64,000 nt of DNA, taken from the NCBI GenBank assembly GCA_036867785.1, contig CP145411.1, positions 1,612,001-1,676,000 on the forward strand. Reading direction: 5' to 3'. This DNA is from Plasmodiophora brassicae (lineage: Eukaryota). The notes under the pieces are model-generated. The model ran no database searches. It was given only the letters and a program-made list of their open reading frames with translations, and was not told the origin of the DNA. The position numbers and the translations under genes are program-made. Each line of letters opens with the position of its first letter. Position 1 is the first letter of the stretch. Shown here one piece after another: positions 1 through 18,709 of the stretch.

Positions 1-3000
1 CGAGTACTTCTACCGTCAGGTAGAACAAGAGGTTCTGAAGGAAGTGCATCATGCGCTGGCGAAGCACTAGGGACCTGGAGAACGTTGACGATAGGTCGAG
101 TTCTCGCATTCTAAAACAGCGGTCAGAAGCCGGACGCGTTCAGCAACAACAACCACTGAACCTTTGCTGGTAGCGCCAAGTAATCCCGATCTGACGCTCG
201 ACATGTTTGATGAAGAAGATGTGTCTGAATAACAACTCGTACTTGGTCATCGCCTTTTTCGACAATACGATCGAGATGGGCCACTGCACAGCATATTCCA
301 GCGTAAACGCCTCGATACCAGTAAGCGGCGACCCGGTCGGGCGATGAAGTGTCTCAGACGAGTGCATCGTTCGAGAATACGCGTCATTAGCAACATTGTG
401 GATCACATTCCTAAACGATAACGCAGGTTGGCTCATCTTCAACAGAAACGCAAGCAGGACACTCATACAGCTTCTCCAATAGTGCATGCTGCTCTAGACG
501 ACAAGAGATCTCATCGTGACCAAAGTCATCGCCTGCCGTTGAGAGTGACAGCTCCAGCAATGACTGCAGACGAGCAAGTCTCTGAGCAGAGACGGGCCGG
601 CTCAAATCTTCCTCCGCCGAATCTAAAAAGTGGACAAAGAAATCGCCCTGACCATGCAGGAAATACCGTTTGAGGCATCTGATCGATTCTTAATCAGAAA
701 AGACAGGTCGAACACGTCGGATGAAAAAATGACCTCAAGCGCGGCAACAAGTTGTTCTGCTGCAACAGCACGTCCAGCAATGCAGAGCTCGCGTAGCCAA
801 ATGCAGCATCGATGATGCTTCCATTACTAATAGAGCGACAAAGTCAGACCTGGGCTGGGCGGTGATTAACTGACGTATACAGAGCGGCGTCGAAGCCGAA
901 GGACTGGTCGGCATCTTGTGACGAATCCCGACCAGCTTGCCCAAAGGAGCACTGCCGAAGCACGTTGAGGTATTTTCCCGTCAGTAGGATCTTGTTGGAG
1001 AACTGCTGGAGAAACGCTGGCACATGCTCGTTTCTCACAACGTATCGTTCGTCCTAGCAGACGCAGCCGAGTAAGTAGCTGGCCTGACTGGACTGCTGGC
1101 ATGGCGCCTTACCCAGTACGAGTCATTGAAGTCACGCTCGAGGTTATCCCGTGTTATGTCATCACGAACCTACAAAAACTATCAGATCTGAGCCCATAGC
1201 ACCATTACGTAGCCGAACCCGTATTTGGAATTCATCGTATGGATCCTGGACAATTCCAAACTCGATCCATTTCCGTAACAGGACGAAATAGGGCTCCGAA
1301 CAGTCTTTCAGGATTTGAAAGTACAGGGCACGCGAATTCTCATCACTACCAGAAATCGTAAGAAACGCATCCAGTCAATTTGAGCTAGATGCCATCTTTA
1401 CCCCTCTTTGCAGTACAGGTCGTAGAGTACTTGGATTAGCGAACCTCCGCAAGCACCGGCGGCTGCACTAACAAGAACATGCAATGCCGATATCGTTGCA
1501 ATAGAAGGCTGGAGCTGGAACCACAGCTGCTGGAGGGACAGGTCAGGAGAATCCAGCTGGGCGATCTTGACAACGTACATCTGTCCCGACACATAAGTGG
1601 ACGATCGGCCACATCCATCAACGGGAATTCAACCAACCTCAAGAACCGCCTCCATCGCGCCAGCAAGTGCCTGGCTGACAAGGCCATACTCGTATCGGGA
1701 GCGCAACTGCCAATAGCGCCGTACTGTGAGACAGGTCGAGTATAACTAGCCCGCCTGGAAGCAAACCTTTACGAAGTGCACGATTTCCAGATACTGGTTG
1801 CACACAGGGAAGCATCGCTCGACTTGGAACTGCATCGTAACGCAAACTTGCGTAGCAGAAAGTTTGAACCCAAGGTTCGGCGAGGACGATAAGCCGACCC
1901 ATTCTGATTCGAGGCCGAGTAATGCCGTAAGAAGCGCCCTGCAAAGAAGACGCTCCTAGCAAAAGTCAAGAACCTGCTGACCAGCCCGTGCATTATTAGT
2001 CATACCTGTCGCTCTTTAGGAAGTTTGGCGAACGAAGGAGCTTTACCAACACGTCTCGCGCTTCGAGATTCCCGCAGCCACGAGGGGGAATACGGCACTG
2101 ACGCCTTTTGGACGCTCCAAGTGGACGCAGCGGAAACGTCGGACATGCTCGAATGCAGAGTATCAGCTGAAAAGTACACCGTTAACGCAGACTACAGAGA
2201 TGCCAGCGTGAGCGGTACATCGATCACAAGACAGCAATGTTGCAAAGCACGATTTGAGGACAACGCGGTCTCCACTTCTGACTGAACTTGTTGAATCTGG
2301 ATTTGATTCGGCTAATTGTGCTATGAGCATGTCTCGTGCAGATAATCATTTGCGACACAAGTACCATTCACAACCGTCCATCTTGATCTCGAGTCATTGG
2401 GAGATCGGGAGCATTCAACACGTCCCTCACTGGTTGCACTCAGATAGACAGCCTCGGCACCTGACCGAAGTGACAGCACGACATTCTGGAAATAACAAGC
2501 CAACGATCATCACATGGTAACGCAAATGTGTCATCAGACGTCAAGTACGTCACCAAACAGGAGCGGGCCGCGATCTCTCCAGCTTGTACAGTTCGTGATA
2601 CAAACCGGAAATGCGACAGGCCACGAAGACCGGACCTCGCCGTCTTCGTCGAATGCCACTGCCAGTTTGAAATGTCATTCGAAAGTGCCTGGAATCACAC
2701 ACTGCAACTTGTGCTGACCGTATTTGCCAGCTTGGGAACGGAGCGCAATCATATCGCCGAAATTGATTCGCAGAACAGAAGGGATGTCTGGGAGATCACG
2801 ATGGTGGGTTTGCCCATTCTTTGATTGCTGACGATGGACATACCTGTTTTTCTTGCCTCCTTGCGGCCGCCAATAGCATCCAGGGCTGCTAGAGACTTTG
2901 GAGACAACAACGGGGTCGACGACTTGGTTTTACAAACTGCATAGCTAATCAGCAAGACCTGGATGTGTTACACATCATATTATCACCTGGCTTCCTGGGA

Positions 3001-3570
3001 GGTGACAAAGGAAGACCTTCCAGTAAAGAGGTCGTGTCAATCGTAGTTGACATGGACGACGTAACGGTCGGCGACTTTTCTCGAGTCCCCATGGTCGAAT
3101 TCAGACTGCCAGGAGGGGCCGTTGGTAATGATGACGACGGCGGTGAATCCCGCGGGAGCGATACAAGATCCCTGTTACTACACATGAGAAACACGATGGA
3201 CGCGCGAGAAATCAGGCATACCTGACAGCGCCATCGTCGAGGATGTGCCAGAGAACGTACATGAACCTGGCGCAGTCCACCGGGCTGGAAGCAGTCACGT
3301 TACATCGGCCGACGAAACCACGCCAGACGAGGTGTCCACCAACCAATTCCGCATGTCGTTGAGACGAGCCAGGGTCCGATTGAACAGGTCGACGTCGGCG
3401 CATCGCCCCGGCAATCGCCGCGCCGCCTTCCTCACGTTGTACTCGTCGACTTTGCTCAGCGACGTCGCCATCTTGATCGTGCCCGCCAGCGACGCCGCCG
3501 CGCTCGGGTCCCCGCCCATCTCGACGGCGATCTCCCGGGTCAGCTGCGCGATCTCATCCGACGCCGCCAT
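1..3570 (-). CDS. TUBGCP2: Gamma-tubulin complex component 2 (GCP2/Spc97 family), multi-exon, 3' end beyond the window start
   Basis: GRIP-domain motifs in exons: GIEAFTLEYAVQWPISIVLSKKAMTKYELLFRHIFFIKHVERQ, KILLTGKYLNVLRQC, LSLQQLWFQLQP, QERLLCRALLTALLGLESEWV. Probable ATG at 3570 (MAASDEIAQL); linking the 5' exons to the rest is my manual splicing. Confidence 0.85.
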
Positions 3571-3752
3571 TGGGACCGTCGCAGACGACCAAGGCCGTGG
3601 AACCCCCCCAATGGCAATGCACGACTTTGGCGGCGCCGCCGTCAAAATTTTTCGTGTTACGCGACGATGTGCAGCTCTGACTGGGACTGCAGTGTCCCGG
3701 GAGTGGATGTGTGGCAAGCGGTTCATTTTCGAATTTGGGTGGGCGGTGAGGG

Positions 3753-6700
3753 ATGTCGGCGTCGGGGAACGTGTTCCATGATTTCATCGATGAGGTGTAC
3801 GGCGCACGCGACGTGTGCATCGATGCTGGCCCATCAAGGAGCCGGAATTCGGGTGGATCGCCGGCGCTGAGGCAGATTTCTGATCTGGCGCCTGACCATC
3901 AAGGGTTCTTCGCCGGATACAAGGAGTTCAATCGCGTGCAGACAGCCGTGTTTGATGCGGTGTACCTGTCGGATCAGAATGTTGTGGTGTCGGCGCCCAC
4001 AGCGTCAGGCAAGACGACGATATTCGAGCTCGCGATCCTAAGGCTATTCAAGCATCGATCTAGGCAGAACGTTACTAGGAAACCGCGTCGCGCTGATGTC
4101 AAGGCTGTTTACATCGCACCTTTGAAAGCGATATGTTCCGAGAAGCTCACGGAATGGAGACCGAAATTTGCCCAGTTAGGGCTTGATTGTGTCGATTATA
4201 CGGGCGATTCCGAGACAAATATCTACAACCTCGCTACTTCCGATATAATGTTAAGTTCCTGCTTGACTTCTTTCGCAATGCTGACTGCATTGCCTTAGCA
4301 TTACGACACCTGAAAAGCTGGATGTGTCTTCGAGGAAGTGGCAAGAATATAAATTCGTTTTCGATCAAATCGGACTCGTTCTCATCGATGAATTGCACGC
4401 CATTGATGAAGAACGCAGTCGGGGAGTGTGCCTTGAAGCTCTTATTACACGGTCAGACCTCTAGATGTTTATTCATCAGGATTCTCATGAGACGTGTGGT
4501 TAGCTTCTTGACTATCAGTACACGGAAGACAAGTATGAAAGAAGAATGCCCCGCGTCTTCGATACGAGTGATTGCCCTTTCTGCAACGGTGAGCTTATTC
4601 GTGTCTCGCGTCACGATTTCATTGAATGAAAGTAGGCACCGAACATCGAAGAACTTGGAGAATGGCTCAATGCTGCCGTGTTTAAGTTTGGCGATGAGTT
4701 TCGTCCGGTCCCCTTGAAACTTTTCACGATCGGCAATCCGATGGGCAGAAAGTTCTACGCTTGGGACACTCTAGCGAACGAAAAAGTCAGGCTTCGTCGT
4801 GAATCTTCTACGCCGGATCTGAACGTGTTTCAGGTCTTGGACGTTATACGCGAGTATAATCCACAAGGACGTCCTACACTGATATTCTGCTCCAGCAGGA
4901 GCGGGTGCTTTCAGTGCGCCAAGAAAGTTCTTCAGTGCGCTACTGAGAAGCGATATAGACTTCTGACCAGTAGTGTGGACAAGGGTGTTCTGGCGGAATA
5001 TGCTAGAAAGCTGAATGGTACGATCACCAGAAGGTTGCAAAATTGCCTGACTTGTTACTCTTTTATCTGCAGATAACCGCCTTGCTCCTGTATTCGCCGA
5101 GGGCATAGGAACGTACCATGCCGGGCTGACTCAACATGACAAACAAATAATGACATCGACCTTCCTGGCTGGCCGCTTGAAAGTCCTATGTTCGACAACA
5201 TCCCTTGCGATGGGTGTCAATGTAATTCACGTGTAAACCCTTTGAAGCGTAATGCCAATCAGTATTGAATTTGTATGCAGCTTCCTGCACATCTAGTTCT
5301 CGTCAAAGGGACACAAACGTACGATCCCACCCGTCATGCATGCGTTGAACAACCGGCCTCTACAATTCTGCAAATGTGATGAATCGCACTGTCGGGTCAC
5401 TGAACCGGATACTCACAATACGCAGGATCGGTCGTGCTGGTCGTCCTCAGTTTGACAGTTTCGGAGTCGCAGTGGTAATGACAACTAAGAACATGGTGGG
5501 GGTGTACAGCAAGATTCTGCATGGTCAGAAAGCTATTGATTCGCGTTTGTTCGCGGGCAACCCTGTCGAGCATATCAATGCTGAAATTTCTATGAGTACG
5601 TGTCCCGGCTAGGATTACATGATTTCGTGCTTTCAAACCTTTGTACCAAGGAACGATAACCACGATCGGCGAAGCCGTCGTATGGTTGCGGCACACTTTT
5701 GGAGCTGTACGCATGCGCAAGCACCCAGTCCAGTTCGGAGAGCCTCCAGCTTGCGTGACTGATCCCGTTGCATTTCAACGGGTCCGACATGACTTCATTA
5801 GCGCTCTGCACTTGCAGGCAACAGCGGCTAACGAGCTTGTCCAGGCTTTGGAATCTAGAGTTAATCACAATGTAACGTTGTTGGCTGAAGCTGGAATGGT
5901 GAACGTGATGGCAAATACGACGGGCCTGATGCCGACAAAGCTGGGGAATATTATGGTCTGCGCAATTGAATTTACGAAAAACACATCCTCAGTTGCCATT
6001 CGACATAGGCTCGGTATTATTTGCAGCTGGAAACTGCTAAGGCGCTCACGTCCATCCGTGGCGATATCGACCTGGGGGGCATGCTAAGAGCCATATGTAC
6101 AAGTGCCGAATTCTCGGATCTTCGTATTAGACTGGGGGAGAAGAAAGGTACATGATGGGTGACGGTGCCCCCATCACTGAGGGCTGATAACGGCGTGCAG
6201 TACTGAATGCCGCTAACAAACCTGAAACGATTCGGTACCCCTTCAAAGACAAAGTTAAGACTCTAGTAAGCATGAACCAATGGAGAAGGTTAACGATAAG
6301 TTCTGAATATATACGGGATCGTCAGGAGGATAAAATATTTGTCATAATTCAAGTCGGGCTCCAGAAAGGTCCAACAACTTCTCCGTTTGAGAGCTTCCAG
6401 CTCGACAAAGATACCGCCTCCGCAATCGACATTGGCTGTCGAATTCTGGTACTAAAGGCACAACTCAAGTCTTCGGTTTAACGTCATGCTGTTTAGAGCG
6501 CCGTTGAGGAATATTACCGGGAATGCAATGACCAGTTCTCAGCGTATTCTAATGCCATCAGATTGTTGGTACGCTTCATATCCTGGAAGTTTGAAACTCA
6601 CGGGGGACTTCCGCAGGAAGAAATCGCTTAGCTTGCGAATGTGGCCAGACAGTCAGCACATGCTCCGGCAGATTGACGGAATCGGGCCCAAAAAAGTTGA

Positions 6701-8308
6701 CCAGCTGAAGAACGCAGGCATACAGTCAATTGGCAATCTGAGAGAGGCGTCAACCACCAAAATTGAAGCAGTAGCCCCAAGTATAGCTACGTTATAGCTA
6801 TGCTTCTGATCCTAATTCGTTAGGTATGTGATCGTCATCCACCGTTCGGCTTGCAGGTTAAACAGAGGCTCGCGTTGTTTCCTGCTTTGGAACTTAGAAT
6901 CGAGGTAGCACCCGAATATTTTAGTTAATCTAAAGTGACTCTAACGAGGCGAATGCAGGCCGATAACACTTCGATTGACTGGACCCGCCCGGTACACGTT
7001 CGGCTTGCTGTTGCCCAACAAAACCCAGAATTTAGACCCAAATCGGAGACTTCCGTCTACGTCATTGTTGGCCTCTCTGATCAGACTGTTGTCTTATCGC
7101 GGAGGATCAAGTCTGTGACTTTGTAAACATCGAGGAAATCGGTCAGTCTGACGTTGTTCTTTAGTCTTGCTGCTGGTGCCAGCGAGATGAAATTCGACAT
7201 AACAAGTTTGTATTCAAATTTCCGCAAGTTTGCTAATGAGCTGGCTGACATTCCAAATAGTCCCAATGCGATGTCAAAATTTGCACTTGCATTGCTTCGC
7301 GATCCATGCTTCCCTGGCCGGCATCGACGTTGAGCATGTTCATTATTTTTCTAACATCGACCATCAACGCGACAACGAGAATCTACAAACCGGACCGCAA
7401 GCCGGTTCCAAGCGTACACTGAAGTGCGGGTTCCCCAGCTGTCAAGGTTGCTCAATAATTGTTAGGAGAGAAACGAAAAGCCGCCTGTCCCACTGAGTCA
7501 CAAAGAACAGTAAGGCAGCACTGCGTCAAGATGAAAAACCTATTCTGACCATTCCCTGAAGTTTATGAAAACCCGGTTGTCTCAATGTGGAGCCGCGCCG
7601 AAACGGATTCGCGGCCCTCAGCCTGCGGCTTCTGCATTCGTCAGTGCTGCATTTGACAGATTGTCAGGCCAGGGATCCAACTGTCCAACAGTGCCAGATG
7701 GCAACAAATCTGCAGGCGCACATCAGGTTCGAATCTTTCTCGGCCGACAATTGCGTTGAGTTCCAAATTATCATGGCAGGCCGTTCCAACTCAACTCCTT
7801 GGACGCACGGCTCCCTCGCCGTCGACGCCAATATCCAATACGGTAGGCGCTTCCGGCTCCTGTTACACGCTTGCCCCTGATCTATGAAACATAGACCAAT
7901 GCAGCACGCTCTGCGATCAACGTGAATCTAGGGCATATAAACCCAGGTTCCAGCACCAGTGCAGGCGTTGCAAGCACGTGCCAAACTTCATCAGGAGCGG
8001 CGCTCGTAAGCAAGATGCCCCCGCCCCATGTTTCCGCACCATCAGCGAGGTTTTCAACAACTCCTCAACCACGTGCATTAGAATCGAACATTGGATACGT
8101 CAAGCCGAACCTGGGCCTTGGTGTCAACCTCCACCCTTTACCGCCCGCATGTTTTCATCAGCCTCCTGATCAATCGTCGTGCACGTTTGCCCAAACAGGC
8201 CAGCGTCTGTCTGATTCCACCGCTGTCCAGCCCCCTTCCATATTGGCCTTTCGTGACAATGACTTCTGTGACGCTGCTCTGCTGACTTTTACCGATCTAT
8301 TCTCATAA
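3753..8308 (+). CDS. HFM1: Meiotic Ski2-like DNA helicase MER3/HFM1, many introns
   Basis: FNRVQ, SAPTASGKTTIFELAILRL, AVYIAPLKAICSEK, DELH, FGDEFRPVPL, TLIFCSSR, GRAGRPQFD, EHINAEI, and a Sec63/HhH region (LRQIDGIGPK). The 3' exons are low complexity and uncertain. Confidence 0.88.
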
Positions 8309-8382
8309 CCTGAGCACTCTGCTGGCCATTCCCGTAAAATATTAATCGTTGTCCAGAGAATTTATTGAGCACCCTGGCATGA

Positions 8383-10812
8383 TCACCAGTAATCACCACA
8401 AGTGCACGCGCCATCGCGGAAGTGGTGGTGTCGATGGGCATCTCGAATGTAGATTTCGCGTTTGTACAGAGCGGAGGCTCTCTTGGCGGCTTCGTGGCAG
8501 TCGATGCAAATCGGCACATTCTTCACGGCGCGAATAGGCTCACTTTCCGGTAGGTAAATCAGAGCGCACACAATTGCAATCTTCTCACTGTGTACTGACA
8601 CCGACCGACGCGCATCGTCCTCCGATTCAGTCTGTTTCATGACAACCGTAACGTCAGGCGTGTACCCACTCTCGGCTAGGCGTTCCATGAGTTCCGTATG
8701 CTTGCATGAGAATTCGTACTCTTTGAGCAGTGGATCATCGGTGACGAACTCCAGCGATCGTGCGTTCGGTATCTGCAACCAAGTCCTTCCCGGGACCTTG
8801 CCCACGAGATACTGTGTCTTCATCCGTGTTCGAAGGTATGCGAGGTCGTAATACTGCTGGCATCTCGCGAACGTGTTCGCCAGTAGCATCCATCCGATTG
8901 CCAGGTCCTTTGGGGTCCACGCTGGAATAGTCAGCATGTGCTCGAACACACGTTTGCCTCGCGCGGTATCGTTCCACCATCGACATGCGGCCAGAAGCGT
9001 CGTCCAGCATGCGATATCGGATCCGGGCGACCCTCTGGCGATCCTTTCAGCAATGTCGAGGTTCCCAGCCCGACCGTGAAGATCAATAAGGCAGTTCAGC
9101 GACCGAGATGACAAGGTTGACGTCTTAGGATCTCCAGCGAACTCAGCAACGATCACAGTGGCACGGTCCAGGTCCCCAACATGGCTGCACCCAACGAGCA
9201 ACGAGGCTAACGTGTCCGGATTCGGGTTTACAGCGGCAGCTTTCATGGTCTCGAATGTCGCCAATGCCAGGTCCAACTTGGCATGGTGCCCGTAGGCGGC
9301 GATTATCGCGTTGTATGAGCTCGCGCCCGCCTCCGCAGCCTGGAACACATTCATGGCGAGATCGAGATGGCTGCTGCAAGAATACCCGGAGATGAACGCG
9401 CTAACGACAAGGTCGCTGTCCAAGAACCCCTTGCTGCGAGCAAAGTCCTGCAAGGTAACCAGGCCAGCCACGTCGCCAATGTGCCCGCAGGCGTTGACGA
9501 ACTTTGCTAGTAGGGGGCGATCGACCGGGACCTTATCACTGCACATTTGCTCGAACAGCCGCATGGGACGGGACAGCTTGTCGTTCTCATACAGCAGCGA
9601 GACCAAGGTGCTGAACGTGGTGAGGGACAACGGCAATTTCAGACTTCTCAACTGGACGAACATGGCAATGGCCCCACGAACGAGGCCACGATGGCCAAGG
9701 GCGGCAATGAATGCAGCGTAAACGGACTCGCTAAGCGGGCCTTCCTTGCTTCGAGCCTGAAAGACCACCTCTGTACTTTCGAGGTCCTTGCAGCGGTCGT
9801 AAGACGATATCAGTGCACACACGACGTCGTCGTGTTTCAACCAGGCCTGGCTGCATGCGTATTGGTGCAACTCACGTAACGCAGGGAGCCAGGATCTGCA
9901 GGTCCCACAGGCGGTTACAAGTTCTACGAAGGCGATGGTGCTGATTTCGGCAGCACGGTCCTCGAGAATCCGGAATACGGTCATCGCCTCGTCGATGTGT
10001 CCGTGTCGGGCCAGCTCAGTCAGGATAAGAGTCGACAACGAAGCGGTCGGATTCAGGCCCACCGACGTCAAGACTTGTACGATGCTCACAGCAAGCTCGA
10101 ACCTGCACTGGGAGAGAAGCGTACGCGTAAGGTTCAGGTACGTTGGAATATCGCGGCACGCAGGGTAGCGTTGTGATAACAGGCCATCCAGCAGTTGCTC
10201 GGCGAGATCCGCTGCTTGCGCATTACGAGCATCGGAGCAGCATTGAGCTGACAGTTCCATGAGCTTCGACGTGAACTCCGCGTTGTTCGTGATGGCGTCT
10301 GCAATGAGGGGTAATGCTAGATCCGGCTGATTGCTGAGCAAGCAGAGTTCGAGCATGCTGATCATGACGTCCATGGAGCGTGGAGCGTACTTCGTGTATC
10401 GGTCAACCGCAACCTGGGCAAGCGGTGGTACTGCGCTTCGGCATGCTTGGATGAACAGCGCGAACAGCGAATCGGAAATGACCAGACTGCGCGCTGCGAT
10501 CGTGTCCAACACAAGTGGGGCCTTCGCTGGCGCATTCGACTTGCAGAACGACATTATCGAAAGAAAGAAATCAATATCGGTCGGCAGTCCATCGCCGACA
10601 ACTCGCTCGTAGACCGCCCAGACGCGGTCTACGTCCCGCTCCTTCTCGAACACGGCGCACGCTAACGCCGCAGACGGCTTCTTCAGGAACGCATTGAACG
10701 CCGGCGAAGCAAGCGGCGATGGTGCTGGCGGATGCGAACAAAGCGATCGGCGAACGTGTCGCAAGACCGGTACCCGAAGCGCCCGTAATGCGTTGCGAAA
10801 CGACGAAGCCAT
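8383..10812 (-). CDS. PPR protein with E and DYW cytidine deaminase domains (candidate organellar RNA-editing factor), intronless, 809 aa
   Basis: PPR repeats (SYNAIIAAYGHH, VSAFISGYS, LIDLHGRAG), E motif CWTTLLAAC, PG box KVPGRTWLQI, GYTPD, HSEKIAI, CIDCH, C-terminal RDAHRHHHFRDGACTCGDYW. The N-terminus is Arg/Leu/Ser-rich and lacks acidic residues, like a mitochondrial presequence. Confidence 0.95.
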   Translation of the reverse strand: MASSFRNALRALRVPVLRHVRRSLCSHPPAPSPLASPAFNAFLKKPSAALACAVFEKERDVDRVWAVYERVVGDGLPTDIDFFLSIMSFCKSNAPAKAPLVLDTIAARSLVISDSLFALFIQACRSAVPPLAQVAVDRYTKYAPRSMDVMISMLELCLLSNQPDLALPLIADAITNNAEFTSKLMELSAQCCSDARNAQAADLAEQLLDGLLSQRYPACRDIPTYLNLTRTLLSQCRFELAVSIVQVLTSVGLNPTASLSTLILTELARHGHIDEAMTVFRILEDRAAEISTIAFVELVTACGTCRSWLPALRELHQYACSQAWLKHDDVVCALISSYDRCKDLESTEVVFQARSKEGPLSESVYAAFIAALGHRGLVRGAIAMFVQLRSLKLPLSLTTFSTLVSLLYENDKLSRPMRLFEQMCSDKVPVDRPLLAKFVNACGHIGDVAGLVTLQDFARSKGFLDSDLVVSAFISGYSCSSHLDLAMNVFQAAEAGASSYNAIIAAYGHHAKLDLALATFETMKAAAVNPNPDTLASLLVGCSHVGDLDRATVIVAEFAGDPKTSTLSSRSLNCLIDLHGRAGNLDIAERIARGSPGSDIACWTTLLAACRWWNDTARGKRVFEHMLTIPAWTPKDLAIGWMLLANTFARCQQYYDLAYLRTRMKTQYLVGKVPGRTWLQIPNARSLEFVTDDPLLKEYEFSCKHTELMERLAESGYTPDVTVVMKQTESEDDARRSVSVHSEKIAIVCALIYLPESEPIRAVKNVPICIDCHEAAKRASALYKREIYIRDAHRHHHFRDGACTCGDYW

Positions 10813-10986
10813 GCAGTGACCCCAGCTCCCCGACGCAACTCCGCGGCTGCATCAGGTCCACCTGTTGAACGTCGTCAAGGTCGCGCGTTCGACTCCGGCC
10901 TGTCGCCGGGCGCTCATTTTCCGCAGGCGATTGGCGCGCTTCATCAGTCAGTCCTCGGCTGCTGCAAAATCCGAGACGGGATCGGC

Positions 10987-12940
10987 ATGGCGCTGAAGAA
11001 GGCGAGGAAGATGGTGGTTGACGACGACGACGACGACGATGTCATCGTGTCGTCGCCCAAGACGACGACAAAGAAGCGGTCGTTGCCGTCGTATGACCAG
11101 GTTGGCTGTTGCGGCTGGTTGGCATGCGATCCGGGATGCTGATGTGGGACCTTTGACGGCTCAGAAACCGGCCAAGAAGAAACCGGTGAAAGATGATTTT
11201 ATCGACGACGAGGATGAGGATGAACAGGTTTCATGTCTGACATGTCAAAGTTTGATGGAATGACATGCTGTCTTCCAGAAACCGGCGAAGAAGAGGGCCA
11301 CGCCGAAGAAGGCAACGACTCCGAAGAAGGCGACGACGCCGAAGAAAAAGGCGAGTGCCGCCAAACTGGAAGTCGATGTGGTACGATGCTTTGGACGACG
11401 CATTAGTCTCTGCCAATATGTATGAAATTGGGCATAGGATTTCGAACCATCTGACGTCAACCACAATGAAATCTTCACTGAACCGCTGACGAAGCTCGCC
11501 GAGGAGGAATTCGTACGGTTGCCTGACAGGCTGCTTGAGACACAAGTGACGTTGTGGGATTTAGGCGATGGGCAACAAGTTCAAGGGGGCCATGATTCGC
11601 AAAGCTGTACAGTCCTTGAAGGTCTTCCCGCGTCGAGTGTCGTCGGGCGAGGAGGCCATGAAGCTCAAAGGCGTTGGTAAATCTATTGCAAAGAAAATCG
11701 ACGATATCATCGAGACAGGAGCCATGCAACGGTATTTACGTAGTCACTGATGTATTCGTCGATGCCTAAAAATGTTCCCTGAGGTCCGAGCATGCACCTG
11801 ATGAGGTAATTCAAAAGGCGGCGGACGAGATCCACACAGTGTTCGGTATCAACAAAACCAAAGCTTGGAAGCTCGCACGCGATCACGTATTCCATATCAT
11901 GTGGATGGCAGTGCTTCTAGTTAACGCTACCTTCTGCACAGAACGTCCGCCATGTTCAAGACTTGTTTAACCATCAGGACGTCCTGGAACAGCCAGCGAA
12001 AATCGGTTTACAATTGCACTACCTAGCTGATGTACTGTAAGGCTGATCCACTTTGTACAGGTCTGAAATACTTTAAGGAGTTTCAAGGTTCGTGACGATC
12101 TTCGATCTCCAGCGGCATCCCGACTGATTTTGTCATAGAGCCGATTTCCAGTGCCGACGCCGAAGCTGCCGTTAAGTTGATCGAAAACACTGCCCAAGAG
12201 GTCCACTTGCTTCCCTCGTGAGGGTTTTCGTTACTTACGCTCCGCTCCAGATCGACGACGCCATCGTCGTACGTGAATGTGGAGAATTTGGCCGTGGCAC
12301 GGGACCGCCCATCGACGAGTTGCACGTTCTTGTTGGGCACGCGTCTAAACAGCAATTCTCGACGCTAATGGACGCACTTCGTTCCTCTGGGTTCATCACC
12401 GATGACATCCAGTCCACCGCCGCCCCGTCGTTGCATGCCGTCTGCAAGCTCCCAGAAGCACCTGAACCAGTTCGCCATGACCACGTTGCAGAACCAGAGA
12501 CAGCTCCTGCCCTTGCGCCTAAGACGTTCTCCATTCCGAAGCTCTCTGCGCTCCCAAAGGCAAGCACGGGAGTGCCGAACCTCTTCGCGACTCGTGGGAT
12601 GTCTGAACCCGCTTCAACGACAGCAGCGCCAATGACTGCCTCGGGCGCTGAATCGTCTTCCAATACCCCGGCAGGGCAGCGTCGCCACTTCCGAGTTGAG
12701 TTCAAGACCTGCACGCTGGCGTCTCTTCCTGTGCACGTGACGTTCCTGATGGGGCCGCCGTCCTACTTCAAGGCTCTCCAGACGAGGGCTGAAGAGCACG
12801 GATACGTCCTGACGGAGCGATCCCTGCGTCGTGCCAACGAAGACGAGTCGTCAACGAAAGCACACGTGGTCATCGACTCCGAACAAGCACTCTTCGACAC
12901 GATCGGTGTCGAATGGGTCCCGTACTCGCAACGCTCGTGA
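10987..12940 (+). CDS. X-family DNA polymerase-like protein (Pol beta/lambda fold) with altered catalytic residues, multi-exon
   Basis: 8-kDa lyase/HhH domain (RKAVQSLKVFPRRVSSGEEAMKLKGVGKSIAKKIDDIIETG), palm (CGEFGRG...LHVLVGH), thumb (GYVLTERSL...SEQALFDTIGVEWVPYSQR). N-terminal KKATPKK repeats. Confidence 0.8.
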
Positions 12941-12961
12941 CCGGTCTCAGTACATCCCTCG

Positions 12962-13525
12962 TTACACTCCTGCATTGAACATTGCTGCCAGGTCGTCTAC
13001 AGCAGTCTCCTCAGCGTCCAACGTGCTCACTTCGACGTAGCGGCACGCTGGTTGAACCTCGGCGCCACCCTTCGTAATGTGCGCCTCCCAGTTGTCCAGC
13101 TTGAACTCGTCCCTCGGGTTTGCTCGCGCTCGTATCCTCGCCTTCAGCACATCGTTATCAGGACAGCGCACGTACACGACCTGGACGCTGGCGTCCAACA
13201 TGTGTTCCAGCGTCTCCGCCCAGTCCTTATCGTGGAGTTCCTGAGTGAACGGCCCGACGATGACGCAATCGAGATTCGGGTTGTCGTTGGCGATAGCGAA
13301 GACGGTGCGATAGACACTGTCGCGAAACGTCTGCTTATACGTTGGGGAATCGCGGTCGCGCGGCGAACGGCCAGCGAGCACGAGACCCGCTCGAACGACG
13401 TCCTCGGTGCATGTGTCCGTGTCCAGGAACATGCAGGGTGACAATCTAGCCGCCAGGCGCCGCCCGATCGTCGTCTTGCCGACGCCCGCTCTACCGGTCA
13501 CCACGACCACCCGGCGCCTAGCCAT
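12962..13525 (-). CDS. Small P-loop kinase (AAA_33 / nucleoside-nucleotide kinase-like), intronless
   Basis: Walker A GRAGVGKTT, FLDTD and lid motif LKARIRARANPRD. Confidence 0.8.
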   Translation of the reverse strand: MARRRVVVVTGRAGVGKTTIGRRLAARLSPCMFLDTDTCTEDVVRAGLVLAGRSPRDRDSPTYKQTFRDSVYRTVFAIANDNPNLDCVIVGPFTQELHDKDWAETLEHMLDASVQVVYVRCPDNDVLKARIRARANPRDEFKLDNWEAHITKGGAEVQPACRYVEVSTLDAEETAVDDLAAMFNAGV

Positions 13526-13569
13526 TATTAGCACGGTGCAACCGTTTCAAGTTTTATGACGATGTCGCG

Positions 13570-13735
13570 CTTGGGGATGGTAGGCGAGGACTGTCAGTTC
13601 CTCAAGGCGATCTGGATCTAGGCGACTTCGGTAAGGGTGCGGGCCTTGAGGGTGATCGGAGAGGATCATGAACTCCTCAAGGCGATCTGGATCTAGGCGC
13701 ACACGTTTGGGATCCGATAACCGCCTGAGGTCGGT
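13570..13735 (-). pseudogene. Possible hAT transposase C-terminal remnant, internally duplicated
   Basis: LSDPKRVRLDPDRLEEFMIL and PYRSRLDPDRLEELTVL resemble the end of the hAT dimerisation domain (RxRLxPxxxExL). DNA repeat ctcaaggcgatctggatctaggcg at about 13601 and 13676. Confidence 0.35.
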
Positions 13736-13970
13736 CGCACCCAGCCCTGCCACCTGTTCTGTCAGGCCATGCTGAACGTTGACGAGTGAACGAAAGCAGC
13801 GTCGCTGGAGGTGACGGTGCATTGCACAAGCCAGTGACATCGTGTGTGTGCAAGCGGGGAATTTGGGACTAATGTCCAGATTGCCAGCATCCGCCGGCAC
13901 TACCTGTCGTGACTCACTCATGCCACGACAATTATATGGGCGGCAGCCCTAAGAGGTCCTTCGCAGACTC

Positions 13971-14035
13971 CGCCACGGTGTCCGTGACGGACGTGCGTTG
14001 GGAACCGCCACGGTGTCCGTGGCGGACGTGCGCGG
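13971..14035. repeat. Short direct repeat (cgccacggtgtccgtg(a/g)cggacgtgcg x2)
   Basis: Seen directly, upstream of the snoRNA host transcript. Confidence 0.8.
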
Positions 14036-14176
14036 GAACCTGCGCGTCGACCAGGGCCTCGTCATTCGTTAAACAGGCTGGTTGGCGTTCCTTGTCCACC
14101 TACCGAGATCATGTTGCAGCACAATGGTATAGTGACAAGGTATGCAGTTGTTTGGTTTCGGGACGCATTTGCTTTT

Positions 14177-14278
14177 GAGATGATTAGTTTGAAACTTCTT
14201 ACCCCATGTGAATCGCTAGTTGATCACACCTCGTAAGACAGTGGGCCGCGGCCAGCGGATTCCATTGCAGAATGATCG
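14177..14278 (+). ncRNA. Orphan box C/D-like RNA, copy 1
   Basis: Intronic; C-like ATGATTA at 14180, ACTTCTTACCCC, long hairpin with GTAA loop, D-like ATGA at 14272. Confidence 0.75.
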
Positions 14279-14421
14279 CTTTTTTATCGCATTGTGTTCG
14301 TCTCGAACGTTTCATTTGACTGACAGCTCGTCTCAGGGGAGCACGTGTTGACTGGATAGCCAAGCGTGGCCGGGCGGTGTATACATCAGGTACATGTTTA
14401 TTGTTTTCTCCGTTTCTTTTA

Positions 14422-14524
14422 TCGAGATGATTATGAATAACTTCTTACCCCAAGTGAATCGCTAGTTGATCATACCACGTGAGGCAGTGGGCTGCGGCCA
14501 GCGGCTCTACTGTGGAATGATCGA
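14422..14524 (+). ncRNA. Orphan box C/D-like RNA, copy 2
   Basis: Intronic; TCGA/TCGA terminal stem, ATGATTA at 14427, ACTTCTTACCCC, hairpin with GTGA loop, ATGA at 14517. Confidence 0.78.
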
Positions 14525-14655
14525 ATTGAACAGTCCCATTTTTATTTGTCCATGCGCTTTCCAGTACTGACTGTTGCCTGTTGCAGATGATTGGGGGCCT
14601 GAGTAGAACGCAAATCAAGTCTTCTGCAGGTAACTTTTTTAAGTTGAAACTGACA

Positions 14656-14763
14656 GTTCGAAATGATTATGAAATTACTTCTTACCCCGAGTGAATCGCT
14701 AGTTGATCACACATTGTAAGACAATGGGCTGCGGCCAGCGGTTTCATTGTGGAATGATCGAAC
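14656..14763 (+). ncRNA. Orphan box C/D-like RNA, copy 3
   Basis: Intronic; GTTCGA/TCGAAC terminal stem, ATGATTA at 14663, ACTTCTTACCCC, hairpin with GTAA loop, ATGA at 14754. Confidence 0.78.
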
Positions 14764-14918
14764 GACCTTTTATTTCAGTACTCGTTGCCCTTATGTAGAC
14801 ACGAACTGACTGCCAGTGTTTGCAGAGCTAACCCCCCCCCCCCCCCCATTCTGCCGGTGCCTCGGTTGTCGTGACCAAGAACTGCGCAAAGGTAAACCTT
14901 TGTAACCGCTAATCATTT

Positions 14919-15000
14919 GCCACATGATGATCTATTCAGTTCTGCTCCTGAAAGCAAATTATTTGCATGTGTTGCAAACTATACCAAATTCGCTGATGGC
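14919..15000 (+). ncRNA. Box C/D snoRNA with two LSU guides (U38/snR61-like D' guide; D guide to the yeast Um898-equivalent site)
   Basis: C box ATGATGA 14924, D' CTGA 14948, D CTGA 14993, GCCA/TGGC stem. CAGTTCTGCT is antisense to LSU AGCAGAACUG; CTATACCAAATTCG is near-antisense to LSU CGAAUUUGGGUAUAG (one C fewer). Confidence 0.85.
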
Positions 15001-15097
15001 TTTAAAATTGTTCTGTTTTCAAAACCTGTGTGCGAAGTATGCTGACGTCGCCTCGTAGGTATACCGATTGGTTCAGTTGCACGATTTCCCTGCTCTG

Positions 15098-15176
15098 GTG
15101 ATGAGGTTCGTCTTAGACGGGCGGTCGTAAGCCGGGACTTACAACCTCGGTGTATTGACGAAGAATTAAACTCTGA
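15098..15176 (+). ncRNA. Box C/D snoRNA, U43/snR70-like (SSU Cm1639 equivalent)
   Basis: C box GTGATGA 15098, D CTGA 15173. GACGGGCGGT is antisense to SSU ACCGCCCGUC; the D' box is degenerate. Confidence 0.75.
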
Positions 15177-15304
15177 TTCTGGATTTCATTTTTCAAATCC
15201 TTTCTACTTGGGGGCTTTCTAACCGGGTGCACTGTGCAGGTTGCCATAACAGTTTCGTGACACGCAATGATGGTACGCCTGCCTAGTTTCTTATATTTCG
15301 GATT

Positions 15305-15375
15305 GCACGTGATGACCACACATAGACCTGTTCCGAGAGATATGCATGTGGACAGAATTCCTCGTTTCTGAAGCA
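15305..15375 (+). ncRNA. Box C/D snoRNA with two SSU guides (U25/snR56-like and snR57-like)
   Basis: C box GTGATGA 15309, D' CCGA, D CTGA 15368. CATAGACCTGTT is antisense (one G-U) to SSU AACAGGUCUGUG; GAATTCCTCGTT is antisense to SSU AACGAGGAAUUC. Confidence 0.9.
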
Positions 15376-15543
15376 CAATCACATTTGCTGTTTACCTTTT
15401 CTGCTATCTATGTTCAAGGTTGCTGACGTCTGGACGTTCCCAAACAGGTGATCTTCCTTGCCATCGGATATGTCGGTGGGCGTCGTGTCGAATGCGAAGC
15501 TCGCAGATATCGGGTATGAAGTCTTTTCTTCAATTTGTCGTTT

Positions 15544-15619
15544 GCTTCTGATGTTACACCATATTTGCTACTCTTGACTGTTGTGTGATGATTCTCTATC
15601 CACCAAGATCTCTGAAGCG
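15544..15619 (+). ncRNA. SNORD24: U24 box C/D snoRNA
   Basis: U24-type C box TGATGT; guides TATTTGCTACT (antisense to LSU AGUAGCAAAUA) and CCACCAAGATCT (antisense to AGAUCUUGGUGG); internal C' GTGATGA; D CTGA 15612. Confidence 0.92.
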
Positions 15620-15769
15620 TTGTCTGCTCTTTGCCGTTCCTTTTCGTAGTCTTTATGATCATTAACATGGTTGCGTAGGGCCTTCCCTGGTCACTTTCAT
15701 CATATCAAACCTTACCTCCCCGCCAAGGCTCATCAGGTACGCGCATTTGCGTTTCGACCGTCATTTCTT

Positions 15770-15854
15770 GTGATGAACGTGCATCTCGCCAATCGAATTC
15801 GTTTGCCATGTCAGCAACGGGCAATGTGACTAGTTGATGCTGCCTTCCTTCTGA
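15770..15854 (+). ncRNA. Box C/D snoRNA, snR52/U83-like (SSU Am420 equivalent)
   Basis: C box GTGATGA 15770. TGCTGCCTTCCTT directly before D box CTGA 15851 is antisense to SSU AAGGAAGGCAGCA, and the D+5 rule lands on the A420-equivalent. Confidence 0.9.
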
Positions 15855-15967
15855 ATCGCTTCATTTGCCGTTTATGTCCGCGTGTCCGTTGACCAGCCAA
15901 CTAATCGATCCGCTGTGTAGGCATGCCAGGGTAAGATGCTCCCCCCTTTTTTTCACGTCCGCCTTTC

Positions 15968-16040
15968 GAATGATGAACAACCAAGTCCAATTCTTAACCA
16001 ACCATGTTGAACACGAAAACGAGCTTTTTAAATCTGATTC
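15968..16040 (+). ncRNA. Box C/D snoRNA, U36/snR47-like (SSU Am619 equivalent)
   Basis: C box ATGATGA 15970; ACGAGCTTTTTAA is antisense to SSU UUAAAAAGCUCGU; D CTGA 16034; GAA/TTC stem. Confidence 0.9.
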
Positions 16041-16155
16041 CCAACATTCCCCGCGTTTCGTCACTTGATCGTCTGCCCTGATCGCTGACCGTGCGCCCTG
16101 CTTTGTACAGACGTGACACAATGCATATTATAAACACTATGAATATTATTACGTT

Positions 16156-18709
16156 TTATCTTTTCGGGCCTCTGCCACCCGTTTCGGTCTGTGATGCTCG
16201 TATCATGTCATTCACCAGATCGGGCCAGATTCTGTCGGCGAACGATCCGCGTATTGTCATCGTGATCGCCATCACGCATAGTCGCCGCGCCGGTGATGTT
16301 CCTGCCACCGTCGTCAAACGTCGTGTGAATTTCCTGTCGTTCGCGGTACCATCATCGTGCTGGCGTTCAGCTTCTGAGCGAGCTGCGGGAACCAATCGCC
16401 GAACGGAAGCCAACAGCGTCTCGTCGGCGTGCTGCCCATCGTCCAGGGCCTGCGTACATGCCAGCACCGGCATCAGGAACCCCTTCGTCTTCTGGATGCG
16501 TTGGTTCCTCCACTTCGTTCGCAGGTTGCCTGTGGCGATTGACGAACGTCAGCCCACGGTTTCGTCAACCTCTAGTAGGCTACTAACTGAAATATTCGTT
16601 GGCCATCGCGCGCTCCTGTGGCGTCACCACCATCTCATTGTAACTTGTCAGGTTCGGCAACCTGAACACGAGGTACAGCCGGTGCAACGGGACCGTCGCG
16701 ATCGGGTTCGACGACACCAGGACCTCGGTGATCCTGGTGAACACCTGCGGGTAAAGCAGTAAGCGCGAGGAACGAGTTCCCGTGATCTCTCTGCGGCTAC
16801 CGAAAGCGAGTCGAGCTGGTAGAACGAGACGATGTTGTTGAAGGAGAATTCGAGGCGTCGCAGGTTCGCCCAGGCGACGAATTTGCTGAAGAACGGCGTG
16901 ATGTTGTTGAAGGGGACGTACTGGAAGCTGAGCGACGTACAGTCCGACGCCGTCTCCAGGTCGAGCGCCTGGAACCCGAATCCGAATCTGCCATCAGTTC
17001 GGGTCAGCGGGAGCCATTAGCCACAGCGCGCCTACTGACACGGCGAGTTTCGTCCTGCCGTTCTGGAACTGGTAGAACGACGGCAACGTGGATTCCTCGA
17101 GGTCATCTGCGTCATCGGGCCGATCAGCGCAACGCCCTCCCCTGGGAGTGGGCCTGCCGCCCATTCTACACCTAAGTTGTGTTGGTTGGCCTCCCACCAG
17201 TCCCGAATCTTGTGCGAGTTCGCCGTCCAGGGCGCCGCTGTCGGCCGCACCCGTTGCCCCATGGATGCGACCTGACCGCCCGGTGCCGCTGGATCCTCTG
17301 TCGCCGGCGGGACTTGCTCTGCCGCCTTCGATTTGTCGTCGTCCGACGAATACGACCATGGCTCGTGCTGTCGTTCCCCATCACTGTCAGCGCGTTCCTC
17401 TGCGGGAGCGGACACGTCTTCTCCAGGCGCAGGAGCACGCGTAACGGGCCGATGCCCGCCTTCCCAGACGTCCAGCGCCATTCTACATTCGGCATATCAC
17501 GACATGGATCGAACAGCAACCGTTCGCGACGACGACCGACACGTTTGCCAATCCACCAGACTGGATGCGCATCATGAACGCAGGATCGGAGCAGATCGGG
17601 TTGTGCCTCAGGGTTAGTTCTGGACGCGCAACCCATCAGGGCGTGTTGCAGGACGTCAACCAGGGCGGCGAACCTCGAAGGGAGACGATGGCCGACAGCG
17701 CGTCGATGACGCTGGAACTGGTGATGCGGTTGTTTGTCAGGAACGCCCTCGACAGGTTGGGGAGGCCGGTTAGCGTACAGCATTGAAACACCTGCCCCAC
17801 GGGTACGGGTGAGGCCTGGAAGACATCCAGTGAGTCCCGTATGCCTCCGTCACCTCATTGTGGGACAGATTGATCTCCGACAGGGACGACATTCCCGACA
17901 GGTTCTCGATCCGTTCGATGCGGTTGCTTTCCAAGTTCAGTACGCGCAGGGATTTCAGGTGCTGTACGTTTTCTGCAAACCCAGGGTGCCCCGAGTTATT
18001 AAGTCACGCGTAGCGACACAGGTGAACACACTGGGCGACGAACCGATTCGCGGGATATTGTTGGAATGCAGGTCGAGAACGTCGAGCATTGGAACCTGTT
18101 CCAACCCGGAGATCGCGGTGAGGTTGTTCTGCCCGAGGAGGAGGACCCGCAGGAGAGGGACGCTGTCAAGTCCAGCAATGCTCTGCGAGGCGTTAGGGGA
18201 CAGCTGCTGCAGAACGAAATCGGGTGCCCACCTGAAGGCCGTTGTTGTGGAAGTCGAGGAAGATCAGGTTGGGCAGCGTCAGGCGCTCGATCCGCCGTAT
18301 GAAGTTGTTCTCGAAGCTCAGCAGCTGCAGGCGCTCCTCGCCGACGAACGTGGGGCAGACCATCAGGCCGCGCCCGTTCAACGTCAGCCGATCCGGCCGC
18401 GTCCCCTTCTCTGAGGCGCTCCTCGACACGACTGGAATCAAATGGTTCACTGGACGCGGCAACGACGACACCTAGCATTGAAGGATCAGCAGCGGTTCAG
18501 CGGGGGGATGGGTTGCCATTGCTCACCGATGATGTGGCAGTGGCGTTCGGCGGCGGCTGCTGGTTTGCGCTAATCAACCGGGCCAGGCGGCTGGGCGAGT
18601 ACCGCATACGACTGGGCGCATGGTCTACGCGTGCATGCACTGAGCATTGGGCAGAAAGCCGGGAATCGCCATACGGTACTGCACCTGCTGTCGGCAACGG
18701 GTCGGCCAT
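16156..18709 (-). CDS. LRRC49: LRRC49-like leucine-rich repeat protein (tubulin polyglutamylase complex / centriolar), multi-exon
   Basis: DRLTLNGRGLMVCPTFVGEERLQLLSFENNFIRRIERLTLPNLIFLDFHNN followed by SDS22-type LRRs (LDVLDLHSN, LRVLNLESNRIERIENL). Confidence 0.75.

Follow-up and report, generated by a model that had tools for sequence, protein, structure and literature searches.

An intron-free PPR-E1-E2-DYW gene of Plasmodiophora brassicae and its large protein family: a candidate factor for mitochondrial C-to-U editing

To our knowledge, DYW proteins accompany C-to-U editing in every lineage looked at so far. In plants, degenerate and DYW-less members of these families rely on DYW domains that other proteins provide in trans. 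The closest described systems are the PLS-class PPR-E1-E2-DYW factors of land plants, for which OTP86 (PDB 7o4e and 7o4f), DYW1 (7w86), and a synthetic protein (9kfx) serve here as references. The available portion of PMC11946409 describes paradinids (Ascetosporea, Rhizaria), in which mitochondrial C-to-U editing was seen by RNA-seq together with PPR-DYW transcripts. The same portion states that in Heterolobosea (Naegleria, Acrasis) nuclear DYW-PPR genes co-occur with a few mitochondrial C-to-U sites, and it reports that paradinid and fungal DYW domains share the loss of two residues between HxE and CxxC, at alignment positions 43–44. For Rhizaria as a whole, PMC13386178 tallies 31 DYW.

Here, we analyzed a window of 64,000 nucleotides of DNA from Plasmodiophora brassicae, the clubroot parasite, with a reading frame for one such protein, P0001. 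Like the land-plant factors, P0001 has the C-terminal order P1-L1-S1-P2-L2-S2-E1-E2-DYW, a PG box, HxE, CxxCH, and a CxC-DYW tail, and its predicted fold matches theirs with TM scores of 0.83–0.85. As in land plants, the gene is intron-free and part of a large, dispersed family that includes degenerate-DYW and DYW-less members. Unlike these factors, P0001 is only 33–41% identical to plant proteins over E2-DYW and falls in a separate clade, reads KNVPIC in place of KNLRVC, and carries an 11-helix N-terminal module that plant-like matches leave unaligned. The order of its PPR motifs upstream of P1 is also irregular (P-P-L-S-P), with few classical code pairs.

P0001 shares the conserved H, E, and two C of the DYW domain with paradinids and Agaricales fungi (PMC11946409, available portion), and P. 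brassicae, like the paradinids, lies within Rhizaria (Endomyxa). Unlike the paradinid and fungal subgroup, P0001 does not have the two-residue deletion, with 28 residues from H741 to C769, equivalent to positions 28 and 56 of the alignment in that portion of PMC11946409; most P. brassicae paralogs are also undeleted. Whereas the same source gives 1–3 DYW sequences for paradinids, P. brassicae has 38 clusters, and the DYW-PPR families of Heterolobosea and other protists are small by comparison. The P. brassicae genes resemble those of Heterolobosea in being non-plant DYW-PPR genes, and heterolobosean sequences were absent among the named top hits.

The gene and its transcript

The reading frame is the longest in the first 20 kb of the window by a wide margin. 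See Table 1 for the coordinates of all features. Its product is a 100% match to a deposited P. brassicae (Rhizaria) protein annotated as “DYW domain-containing” and carried on contigs of up to 1,875,601 bases, and the original prediction that this was a non-plant genome was therefore correct. The gene was found in 20 runs from 8 studies. We aligned contigs from four runs (four studies), and in all four the gene is covered continuously, with neither joint nor gap. Within positions 1–20000 of the window, these runs have 73 joints, 13 of which are introns of 49–63 nt in the gene at 110–2549; we took the four runs to be RNA from these spliced neighbors, as they are not recorded as such. Because intact contigs occur in runs that splice the neighboring genes, the gene is transcribed. 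It is a real gene without introns, as had been anticipated for this locus amid intron-rich neighbors. Judged by the contig span, the 5′ leader measures 142 nt or more and the 3′ UTR is short. A tblastn search for other family copies within the window, using 62 family proteins, gave 128 HSPs, none of them outside 8300–10900.

Table 1. Features of the P0001 locus (window positions; aa, residues of P0001)
Feature	Position	Strand	Details
ORF of PPR-E1-E2-DYW protein P0001	8383..10812	-	Intron-free, 809 aa, ATG start, TGA stop
Unbroken contig span, taken as RNA-derived	8351..10954	-	X11 8351-10905; X10 8370-10954; X1 + X2 7894-10877
AATAAA hexamer	8361..8366	-	17 nt past stop codon; X10 and X11 contigs end nearby
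Presequence-like N-terminus, aa 1-36	10705..10812	-	Basic, no acidic residues, amphipathic
Family-specific N-terminal helical module, aa 37-212	10177..10704	-	11 helices: 5 PPR-like hairpins and one helix
Eleven recognizable PPR motifs, aa 222-599	9016..10149	-	Order P-P-L-S-P-P1-L1-S1-P2-L2-S2
E1 and E2 helical hairpins, aa 600-670	8803..9015	-	9kfx alignment, model
DYW cytidine-deaminase domain (predicted), aa 671-809	8386..8802	-	Pfam, 9kfx alignment, predicted fold
PG box PGRTW, aa 674-678	8779..8793	-	Translation
HSE, aa 741-743	8584..8592	-	Translation, alignment
KNVPIC-IDCH, aa 764-773	8494..8523	-	Variant of usual KNLRVC (KNVPIC, aa 764-769), then CxxCH zinc motif (CIDCH, aa 769-773)
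HHHF...CTCGDYW, aa 795-809	8386..8430	-	HHHF 795-798, CTCGDYW 803-809

Domain architecture and predicted fold

The first 55 residues of P0001 contain eight K/R and no D/E, the earliest acidic residue being at position 56, in agreement with the presequence-like N-terminus originally proposed. The hydrophobic moment of this region is 0.58, a value that reflects composition only, and AlphaFold has low confidence at residues 1–29. Arg-rich, acid-poor starts are also found in many paralogs. The helical module that follows is the best-conserved region across the 38 paralogs (mean entropy of 1.85 bits), and P0001 has a total of ~16 PPR-like hairpins.

The Pfam profiles PPR, PPR_2, PPR_1, PPR_long, and PPR_3 all exceed their cut-offs and, with the 9kfx alignment below, bear out the earlier description of a full PPR array. 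We set the motif register by alignment to designer PPRs and 9kfx, and the helix pairs in the predicted model fall in line with it. A PLS-type array, P1-L1-S1-P2-L2-S2, spans residues 397–599 with motif lengths of 35/35/30/35/37/31. The 5th and last residues of the eleven motifs are, in order, L/T, T/S, V/H, C/E, A/S, S/D, A/S, S/G, N/N, A/S, and N/D. Only three of these (S/D, N/N, and N/D) are classical code pairs, the others being unusual (L/T, C/E, A/S, etc.). With non-classical residues in 8 of 11 motifs, RNA recognition may depart from the plant code. Across paralogs, the same two positions mostly hold PPR-code residues (T/N/S/A and D/N/S/T/G) that differ between copies, and in the 38 paralogs these specificity positions were not significantly more variable than others (2.43 vs 2.10 bits, one-sided p 0.07).

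The solved structure of 9kfx aligns to residues 408–809, from P1 through the DYW domain, with an E-value of 4.7e-79. Pfam DYW_deaminase (PF14432) matches residues 716–809 over profile positions 1–93 of 93, at 94.6 bits (cut-off 24) and an E-value of 3.2e-27. At these E-values, the sequence matches are not due to chance. The E motifs named in the original prediction are recovered by the 9kfx alignment and by helix pairs of the model at 600–627 and 634–666, although Pfam E_motif scores under its cut-off (18.7 vs 27.3 bits). The PG box, HSE, CxxC zinc ligands, and terminal DYW described earlier are likewise all present in the translation. In HSE, we take the histidine to bind zinc and the glutamate to be catalytic, while H773, H796, C803, and C805 presumably form a second zinc site. 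Across all 100 aligned sequences, H773, H796, G801, C803, and C805 do not vary. Judged by its sequence, P0001 has intact catalytic and zinc residues.

The full-length model of P0001 is a continuous solenoid with a pLDDT of 93.4. The E1-E2-DYW model (pLDDT 94.7) superposes on 9kfx_A with a TM score of 0.83 on the query, an rmsd of 2.6 over 210 columns, and an E-value of 3.8e-17. Its TM score is 0.85 on the target for 7o4e_B (OTP86 DYW domain) and 0.84 for 7w86 (DYW1 domain), the latter with an rmsd of 1.7. The predicted structure of P0001 thus has a DYW-type cytidine-deaminase fold.

A family with and without DYW domains and its possible function

An exhaustive search recovered 38 diverged DYW-bearing family members or clusters, and all 16 that were looked up belong to P. 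brassicae. At least 15 further relatives carry the same N-terminal module with no DYW domain. P0001 is not a sporadic single gene: a paralog count, as the original prediction had proposed, gives a family. At least one catalytic or zinc residue is lost in 19 of the 38 DYW copies, or half of them, in contrast to 2 of the 88 remaining top-hit domains, which come from plants wherever a source is named. P0001 is among the catalytically intact copies, retaining H, E, C, and C, and since 19 family members lack one or more of these residues, its active site is not merely a default inheritance. Variants at the KNLRVC site within the family include KNLRVC, KNAPMC, KNRPLC, KNVPVR, and others. As KNVPIC is one of many, it has no supportable special meaning, and the earlier suggestion that it may alter specificity or activity finds no backing.

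We think it fairly probable that P0001 is a nuclear-encoded, mitochondrion-targeted, site-specific C-to-U editing factor of P. brassicae, a reading in which we infer its location, deaminase activity, target, and the editing itself. The N-terminal presequence would direct import into the mitochondrion. The PPR tract (residues 222–599), with its plant-like P2-L2-S2 end, would then bind specific sequences, one or a few in number, in single-stranded RNA immediately upstream of a cytidine, over which E1 and E2 would place the DYW domain. The putative zinc site (H741, C769, and C772), with E743 as the catalytic residue, would convert the cytidine to uridine. A family of ~38 copies that includes an intact P0001 suggests that mitochondrial RNA of the parasite undergoes C-to-U editing.

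Several observations count on either side of an editing role. In its favor are the intact motifs, the fold match to solved DYW domains, the presequence-like start, and transcription in four of four runs, as well as the paradinid (Rhizaria) and heterolobosean precedents. On the other side are the 3 of 11 classical code pairs, the p value of 0.07 for variability at specificity positions, and the sub-cut-off Pfam E_motif. In addition, neither editing nor PPR proteins come up in the available sections of two P. brassicae mitochondrial-genome papers that used transcript data (PMC6823432 and the preprint 10.1101/335406), and such silence is not evidence of absence. In the literature searched, we found no report of this family or of editing in P. 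brassicae; the 31 DYW tallied for Rhizaria in PMC13386178 may already include those of the species.

A broader scheme, plausible in outline and on balance doubtful, is that P. brassicae has multi-site mitochondrial C-to-U editing that both published annotations missed. The agent would be a PPR family specific to this lineage, with ~55 members (38 with DYW, half of them catalytically dead, and at least 15 without) and a plant-like division of labor that evolved independently of land plants. Non-catalytic specificity factors would rely on an active DYW domain lent in trans, and the N-terminal module would be an assembly or docking device.

If these proteins do edit, DNA alone would give a wrong reading of mitochondrial genes in a major crop parasite. 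It would then be necessary to revisit the published annotation, in which PMC6823432 describes genes in fragments, odd start codons, and splice sites left unresolved. Rhizaria would also gain a second, far larger DYW family besides that of the paradinids. With deaminase domains that range from active to dead, this family would offer a natural series for studying how editosomes with trans-acting deaminases arise.

An alternative that we consider unlikely, if deserving of weight, is that P0001 is a mitochondrial RNA-binding factor with no editing role, acting in splicing, end processing, or transcript stabilization, with the DYW domain as a structural, protein-binding, or nuclease-like module. 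The 19 copies that have lost catalytic or zinc residues still keep H773, H796, C803, and C805 invariant, which points to a non-catalytic DYW role under selection in the family. With half of the family predicted dead and a non-catalytic N-terminal module as its best-conserved part, the core job of the family may not be deamination. The relatives that carry this module without any DYW domain fit such a role, as do the eight motifs with non-classical code residues and the 54 introns of the P. brassicae mitochondrial genome, whose splice boundaries are given as unresolved in the available sections of PMC6823432. However, P0001 itself has lost none of the four catalytic and zinc residues, has both a PG box and a terminal DYW, and in its predicted fold matches plant DYW domains that are active. 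DYW proteins are also known to co-occur with C-to-U editing in all lineages examined so far, in line with statements in PMC11946409, which argues for the editing role.

We regard it as very improbable that some family members, possibly including P0001, are effectors sent into the host cell to act on host organellar RNA. P. brassicae is an intracellular parasite of plants, whose organelles employ the same type of factor, and the family is large and diverging fast. Host PPR genes shift their expression at night during infection (available part of PMC13247141), an observation that concerns host genes only. However, the N-terminus of P0001 resembles a mitochondrial presequence, no hydrophobic signal-peptide-like stretch was seen in it by inspection, and the free-living or animal-parasitic rhizarian relatives (paradinids) have PPR-DYW proteins linked to their own mitochondria, as stated in the available portion of PMC11946409. 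For P0001, mitochondrial editing remains the reading we favor. As for other mentions in the literature, two PPR genes of P. brassicae appear in PMC8298192 among those with differential expression, and PMC13746701 merely cites the paradinid paper.

Origin and relatives

In an unrooted tree, the P. brassicae copies form one clade with an SH-aLRT of 87, or 99 when joined by three environmental or metagenome sequences. Across the split, the nearest neighbors of this clade are environmental sequences and one amoebozoan, Soliformovum, the sole named protist neighbor, and not angiosperms. The original prediction had called for a DYW phylogeny of this kind. The P0001 gene has a GC3 of 0.66. In synonymous codon usage, its correlation with other genes of the window is r 0.81, a value within the 0.74–0.93 that these genes show among themselves.

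The earlier concern that the gene is a plant contaminant or misassembly, here from the Brassica host or as a very recent transfer from it, has a negligible chance of being right: the parasite does inhabit Brassicaceae cells, the gene is intron-free within an intron-rich genome, and an AU test with the Brassicaceae protein forced beside the clade, a group chosen after the tree had been seen, did not reject that placement at 0.05 (lnL 69.05 worse, p 0.091), but the identical protein lies on a 1.88-Mb contig, the gene recurs across runs and studies between spliced P. brassicae genes, its codon usage is native, the 38 paralogs are united by an N-terminal module not of plant type and by a single clade, and the Brassicaceae protein (37% identity) is no closer than other angiosperms. 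The low identity to plants contradicts a recent transfer from a Brassica host in particular. A horizontal origin of the gene, as the original prediction suggested, is possible.

We also searched for relatives more widely. A word-based search with the whole of P0001 returned the self match alone. For stand-alone DYW proteins, a search with residues 671–809, by a method that needs shared words, gave 61 candidates, none at E ≤ 1e-8. In a protein atlas, residues 620–809 matched no clusters other than DYW or E-motif ones from plants and rotifers. A metagenome scan with a 9-sequence alignment found that 516 of 595 matched stretches encode relatives; no close relative was among the best 80 of the 516, all of which are 24–35% identical. 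A word-based search with residues 620–809 gave 36 matches, consisting of one paralog and otherwise plant proteins or proteins without a name.

Gene structure and transcription

The DYW gene consists of a single uninterrupted 809-codon frame, by far the longest in the first 20 kb of the window. Pfam assigned a DYW_deaminase domain to aa 716–809 of the product (E 3.2e-27, profile positions 1–93 of 93); five PPR families exceeded their cut-offs, and the E_motif score fell below its own. The top match among solved structures was the synthetic PPR-DYW protein 9kfx (E 4.7e-79), aligned over aa 408–809 as P1-L1-S1-P2-L2-S2-E1-E2-DYW. The translation contains the full signature set, namely PGRTW, HSE, KNVPIC-IDCH, HHHF, and CTCGDYW. 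The original prediction of a PPR-E-DYW frame with intact motifs was confirmed at every point by translation, Pfam, and structure matches.

We placed contigs of four sequencing runs from four studies (X1, X2, X10, and X11) on positions 1–20000. These runs are RNA-derived in practice, because their contigs skip short GT..AG-ended segments (73 in all, 15 listed). All four agree on 13 such introns of 49–63 nt in one minus-strand gene, and all four span the DYW gene without joint or gap. At the average joint density of the stretch, ~9.5 joints would be expected in this span (crude Poisson probability of none, ~7e-5). Since positions are known for only 15 of the 73 joints, the intron-free claim rests on the uninterrupted contig pieces. 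An AATAAA hexamer lies 17 nt past the stop codon, and the X10 and X11 contig ends adjoin it. The X1 and X2 contigs continue into both neighbours. The last open frame of the left neighbour ends ~45–60 nt from the 3' end of the DYW transcript; the genes thus lie tail to tail and are separated by hardly any spacer.

Table. Features in window coordinates. The last four frames have Pfam matches, as listed, to an HNH_2 endonuclease domain, two MFS transporters, and a DNA polymerase beta thumb domain.
Feature	Position	Strand	Remark
DYW gene	8383–10812	-	809 aa
Contig cover, X10	8370–10954		uninterrupted
Contig cover, X11	8351–10905		uninterrupted
Contig cover, X1 and X2	7894–10877		uninterrupted
Contig continuation, X1 and X2	7894–8383, 10816–11142		into both neighbours
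Left neighbour, last open frame	ends 8308	+	
Intron-containing gene	110–2549	-	13 introns
Upstream ORF	10852–10944	-	30 codons, ATG at 10944
Upstream ORF stop	10854–10852	-	TGA
TPR-Hsp70 frame	24340–26490	-	716 aa
Pfam-matching frame	55705–57075	+	
Pfam-matching frame	22909–24312	+	
Pfam-matching frame	41624–44314	-	
Pfam-matching frame	12176–12940	+	

The identical 809-aa protein, named "DYW domain-containing" in UniRef, is recorded for Plasmodiophora brassicae on contigs of up to 1,875,601 bases, and the gene stretch is complete in 20 public runs from eight studies. Its GC content (0.568), GC3 (0.664), and synonymous codon usage lie inside the spread of the other Pfam-supported ORFs of the window (codon-usage correlation r 0.81 with those ORFs, 0.74–0.93 among themselves). 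Furthermore, aa 620–809 show 33–41% identity to plant proteins (37% in the case of the single Brassicaceae protein listed). Taken together, the species record, the runs, the native codon use, and the low plant identity make a host contaminant or recent host transfer untenable. The P. brassicae genome thus has here a genuine and expressed PPR-E1-E2-DYW gene, free of introns and with its deaminase site intact.

One source's label for the protein is at odds with the 1.88 Mb contig. Other nuclear paralogs carry it too; it is apparently a quirk of how the records were labelled and says nothing on location.

Predicted fold and N-terminal module

The full-length AlphaFold model, built from a 100-sequence alignment, has a mean pLDDT of 93.4 and a pTM of 0.85, with aa 1–29 not confident. 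The N-terminus is basic and disordered, with eight K/R and no D/E within the first 55 residues. There are 37 helices up to aa 666, including 11 in aa 37–212 and 13 helix pairs in aa 222–666. The motif register, derived by aligning the protein to designer PPR proteins and 9kfx, matches these helix pairs and yields eleven PPR motifs (P-P-L-S-P-P1-L1-S1-P2-L2-S2), after which come E1 and E2. Modelled separately, aa 601–809 (pLDDT 94.7) superpose on 9kfx_A (TM 0.83 on the query, r.m.s.d. 2.6, 210 columns), the OTP86 DYW domain (TM 0.85 on the target), and DYW1 (TM 0.84, r.m.s.d. 1.7).

The fifth and last residues of the eleven motifs are, in order, L/T, T/S, V/H, C/E, A/S, S/D, A/S, S/G, N/N, A/S, and N/D. 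Under the plant PPR code, only S/D, N/N, and N/D are classical pairs, which would read G, pyrimidine, and U, respectively. Across paralogs, these positions carry mostly code-type residues that differ between proteins; their variability slightly exceeds that of the other positions, though not significantly (2.43 vs 2.10 bits, p 0.07).

The most conserved region across 38 paralogs is aa 37–212, with numerous near-invariant positions and a mean column entropy of 1.85 bits (DYW, 2.05 bits; PPR tract, 2.12 bits). The plant-like matches of our HMMER search leave it unaligned. Judged by sequence, it is an N-terminal module specific to this family.

The P. brassicae PPR-DYW family and its origin

Searched exhaustively with HMMER, 1.84 billion cluster representatives yielded 9392 matches at E<=1e-3, of which the best ~60 also cover the N-terminal half of the query at 32–38% identity. 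The matches listed include 149 non-self proteins, 127 with a DYW region and 22 without. Tree building on the DYW region (FastTree, 177 rows) and on E1-E2-DYW (IQ-TREE quick, 93 rows) placed the query in a single group with 37 other proteins (SH-aLRT 87); this group plus three metagenome proteins is set apart by a branch of support 99. The suggested paralog count thus comes to 38 DYW-bearing members: all 16 of the 37 others that were checked are P. brassicae by name, on different large contigs, and the remaining 21 are assigned by clade only. Each member is a separate 50%-identity cluster representative, and the family is therefore old and diverged. The query is a member of a large lineage-specific family; no second copy was found elsewhere in the 64-kb window.

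At least 15 of the 22 DYW-less matches carry the N-terminal module at 26–35% identity, a count that leaves out two long proteins matching at 22–23% through repeats alone. All four checked among these 15 are P. brassicae by name. In three DYW-less proteins (P0046, P0036, and P0077), the alignment runs through E2 to aa 645–664 and then ends, much like plant "E-class" factors without their own deaminase.

H-x-E and C-x-x-C are kept in 19 of the 38 clade members. The other 19 comprise 12 with a substituted catalytic Glu, four with a substituted His, and three in which only a Cys is changed. By comparison, 86 of 88 further representatives found in that search are intact; those with names are plants, apart from one amoebozoan, and the others are unnamed. 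Residues H773, H796, G801, C803, and C805 do not vary in any of the 100 aligned sequences or in the 41-sequence clade alignment. Since they persist despite these losses, the fold and C-terminal site have been retained and catalysis apparently abandoned. The pattern speaks for the degenerate members being putative pseudo-enzymes rather than products of decay. The query falls in the intact half and, with PGRTW, HSE, CxDCH, and DYW, is among the most plant-like members. Its KNVPIC, singled out earlier as a notable change of KNLRVC, proved to be one of many family variants at that spot.

In the unrooted tree, the closest neighbours of the P. brassicae clade across the split are unnamed environmental sequences and the amoebozoan Soliformovum, and named angiosperms, including the Brassicaceae protein, sit deep within their own clades. 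Forcing the Brassicaceae protein beside the P. brassicae clade cost 69 log-likelihood units, a placement that the AU test does not formally reject (p 0.09). Unlike paradinid and fungal DYW domains, which have a two-residue deletion between HxE and CxxC according to PMC11946409, the family retains the undeleted spacing and therefore lacks this deletion. The family may stem from an ancient streptophyte gene transfer, from a transfer out of another protist, or from vertical descent accompanied by many losses.

Putative function and further features

We consider the protein a probable mitochondrial site-specific C-to-U editing factor. The main rival, a non-editing role in RNA processing, seems to us rather unlikely. 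As far as its accessible text goes, Yabuki et al. 2025 (PMC11946409) shows for paradinids PPR-DYW transcripts together with C-to-U and A-to-I editing in the mitochondria, calls C-to-U editing previously unreported in rhizarians, and makes no mention of Plasmodiophora. A 2026 survey (PMC13386178), in the part available, gives a supplementary-table count of "31 DYW in Rhizaria" and has no Plasmodiophora in its main text. The available portions of the two P. brassicae mitochondrial-genome papers yielded no mention of editing or PPR proteins; according to one of them, gene predictions are fragmented, the boundaries of the 54 introns are unresolved, and nine genes start at codons other than ATG. 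No published description of this DYW family was found in the literature searched. The gene is thus annotated in databases and may be included in one table, yet stays undescribed in that literature.

The upstream ORF is in frame with the main ORF, and its stop lies 13 codons ahead of the main ATG. Contigs of two of the four runs (X1 and X11) show two plus-strand changes, A>G at 10854 and T>G at 10863. Read on the coding strand, the first converts the TGA to CGA, and the second, AGG to CGG, is synonymous. The N-terminus may therefore be longer in some isolates, although the X1 and X11 contigs end short of the upstream ATG. The N-termini of paralogs agree with the 809-aa gene model. Elsewhere in the window, one frame joins N-terminal TPR repeats (aa 40–133) to a full Hsp70 domain (aa 158–708, E 7.5e-200), an unusual case of a chaperone fused to a co-chaperone-type module.
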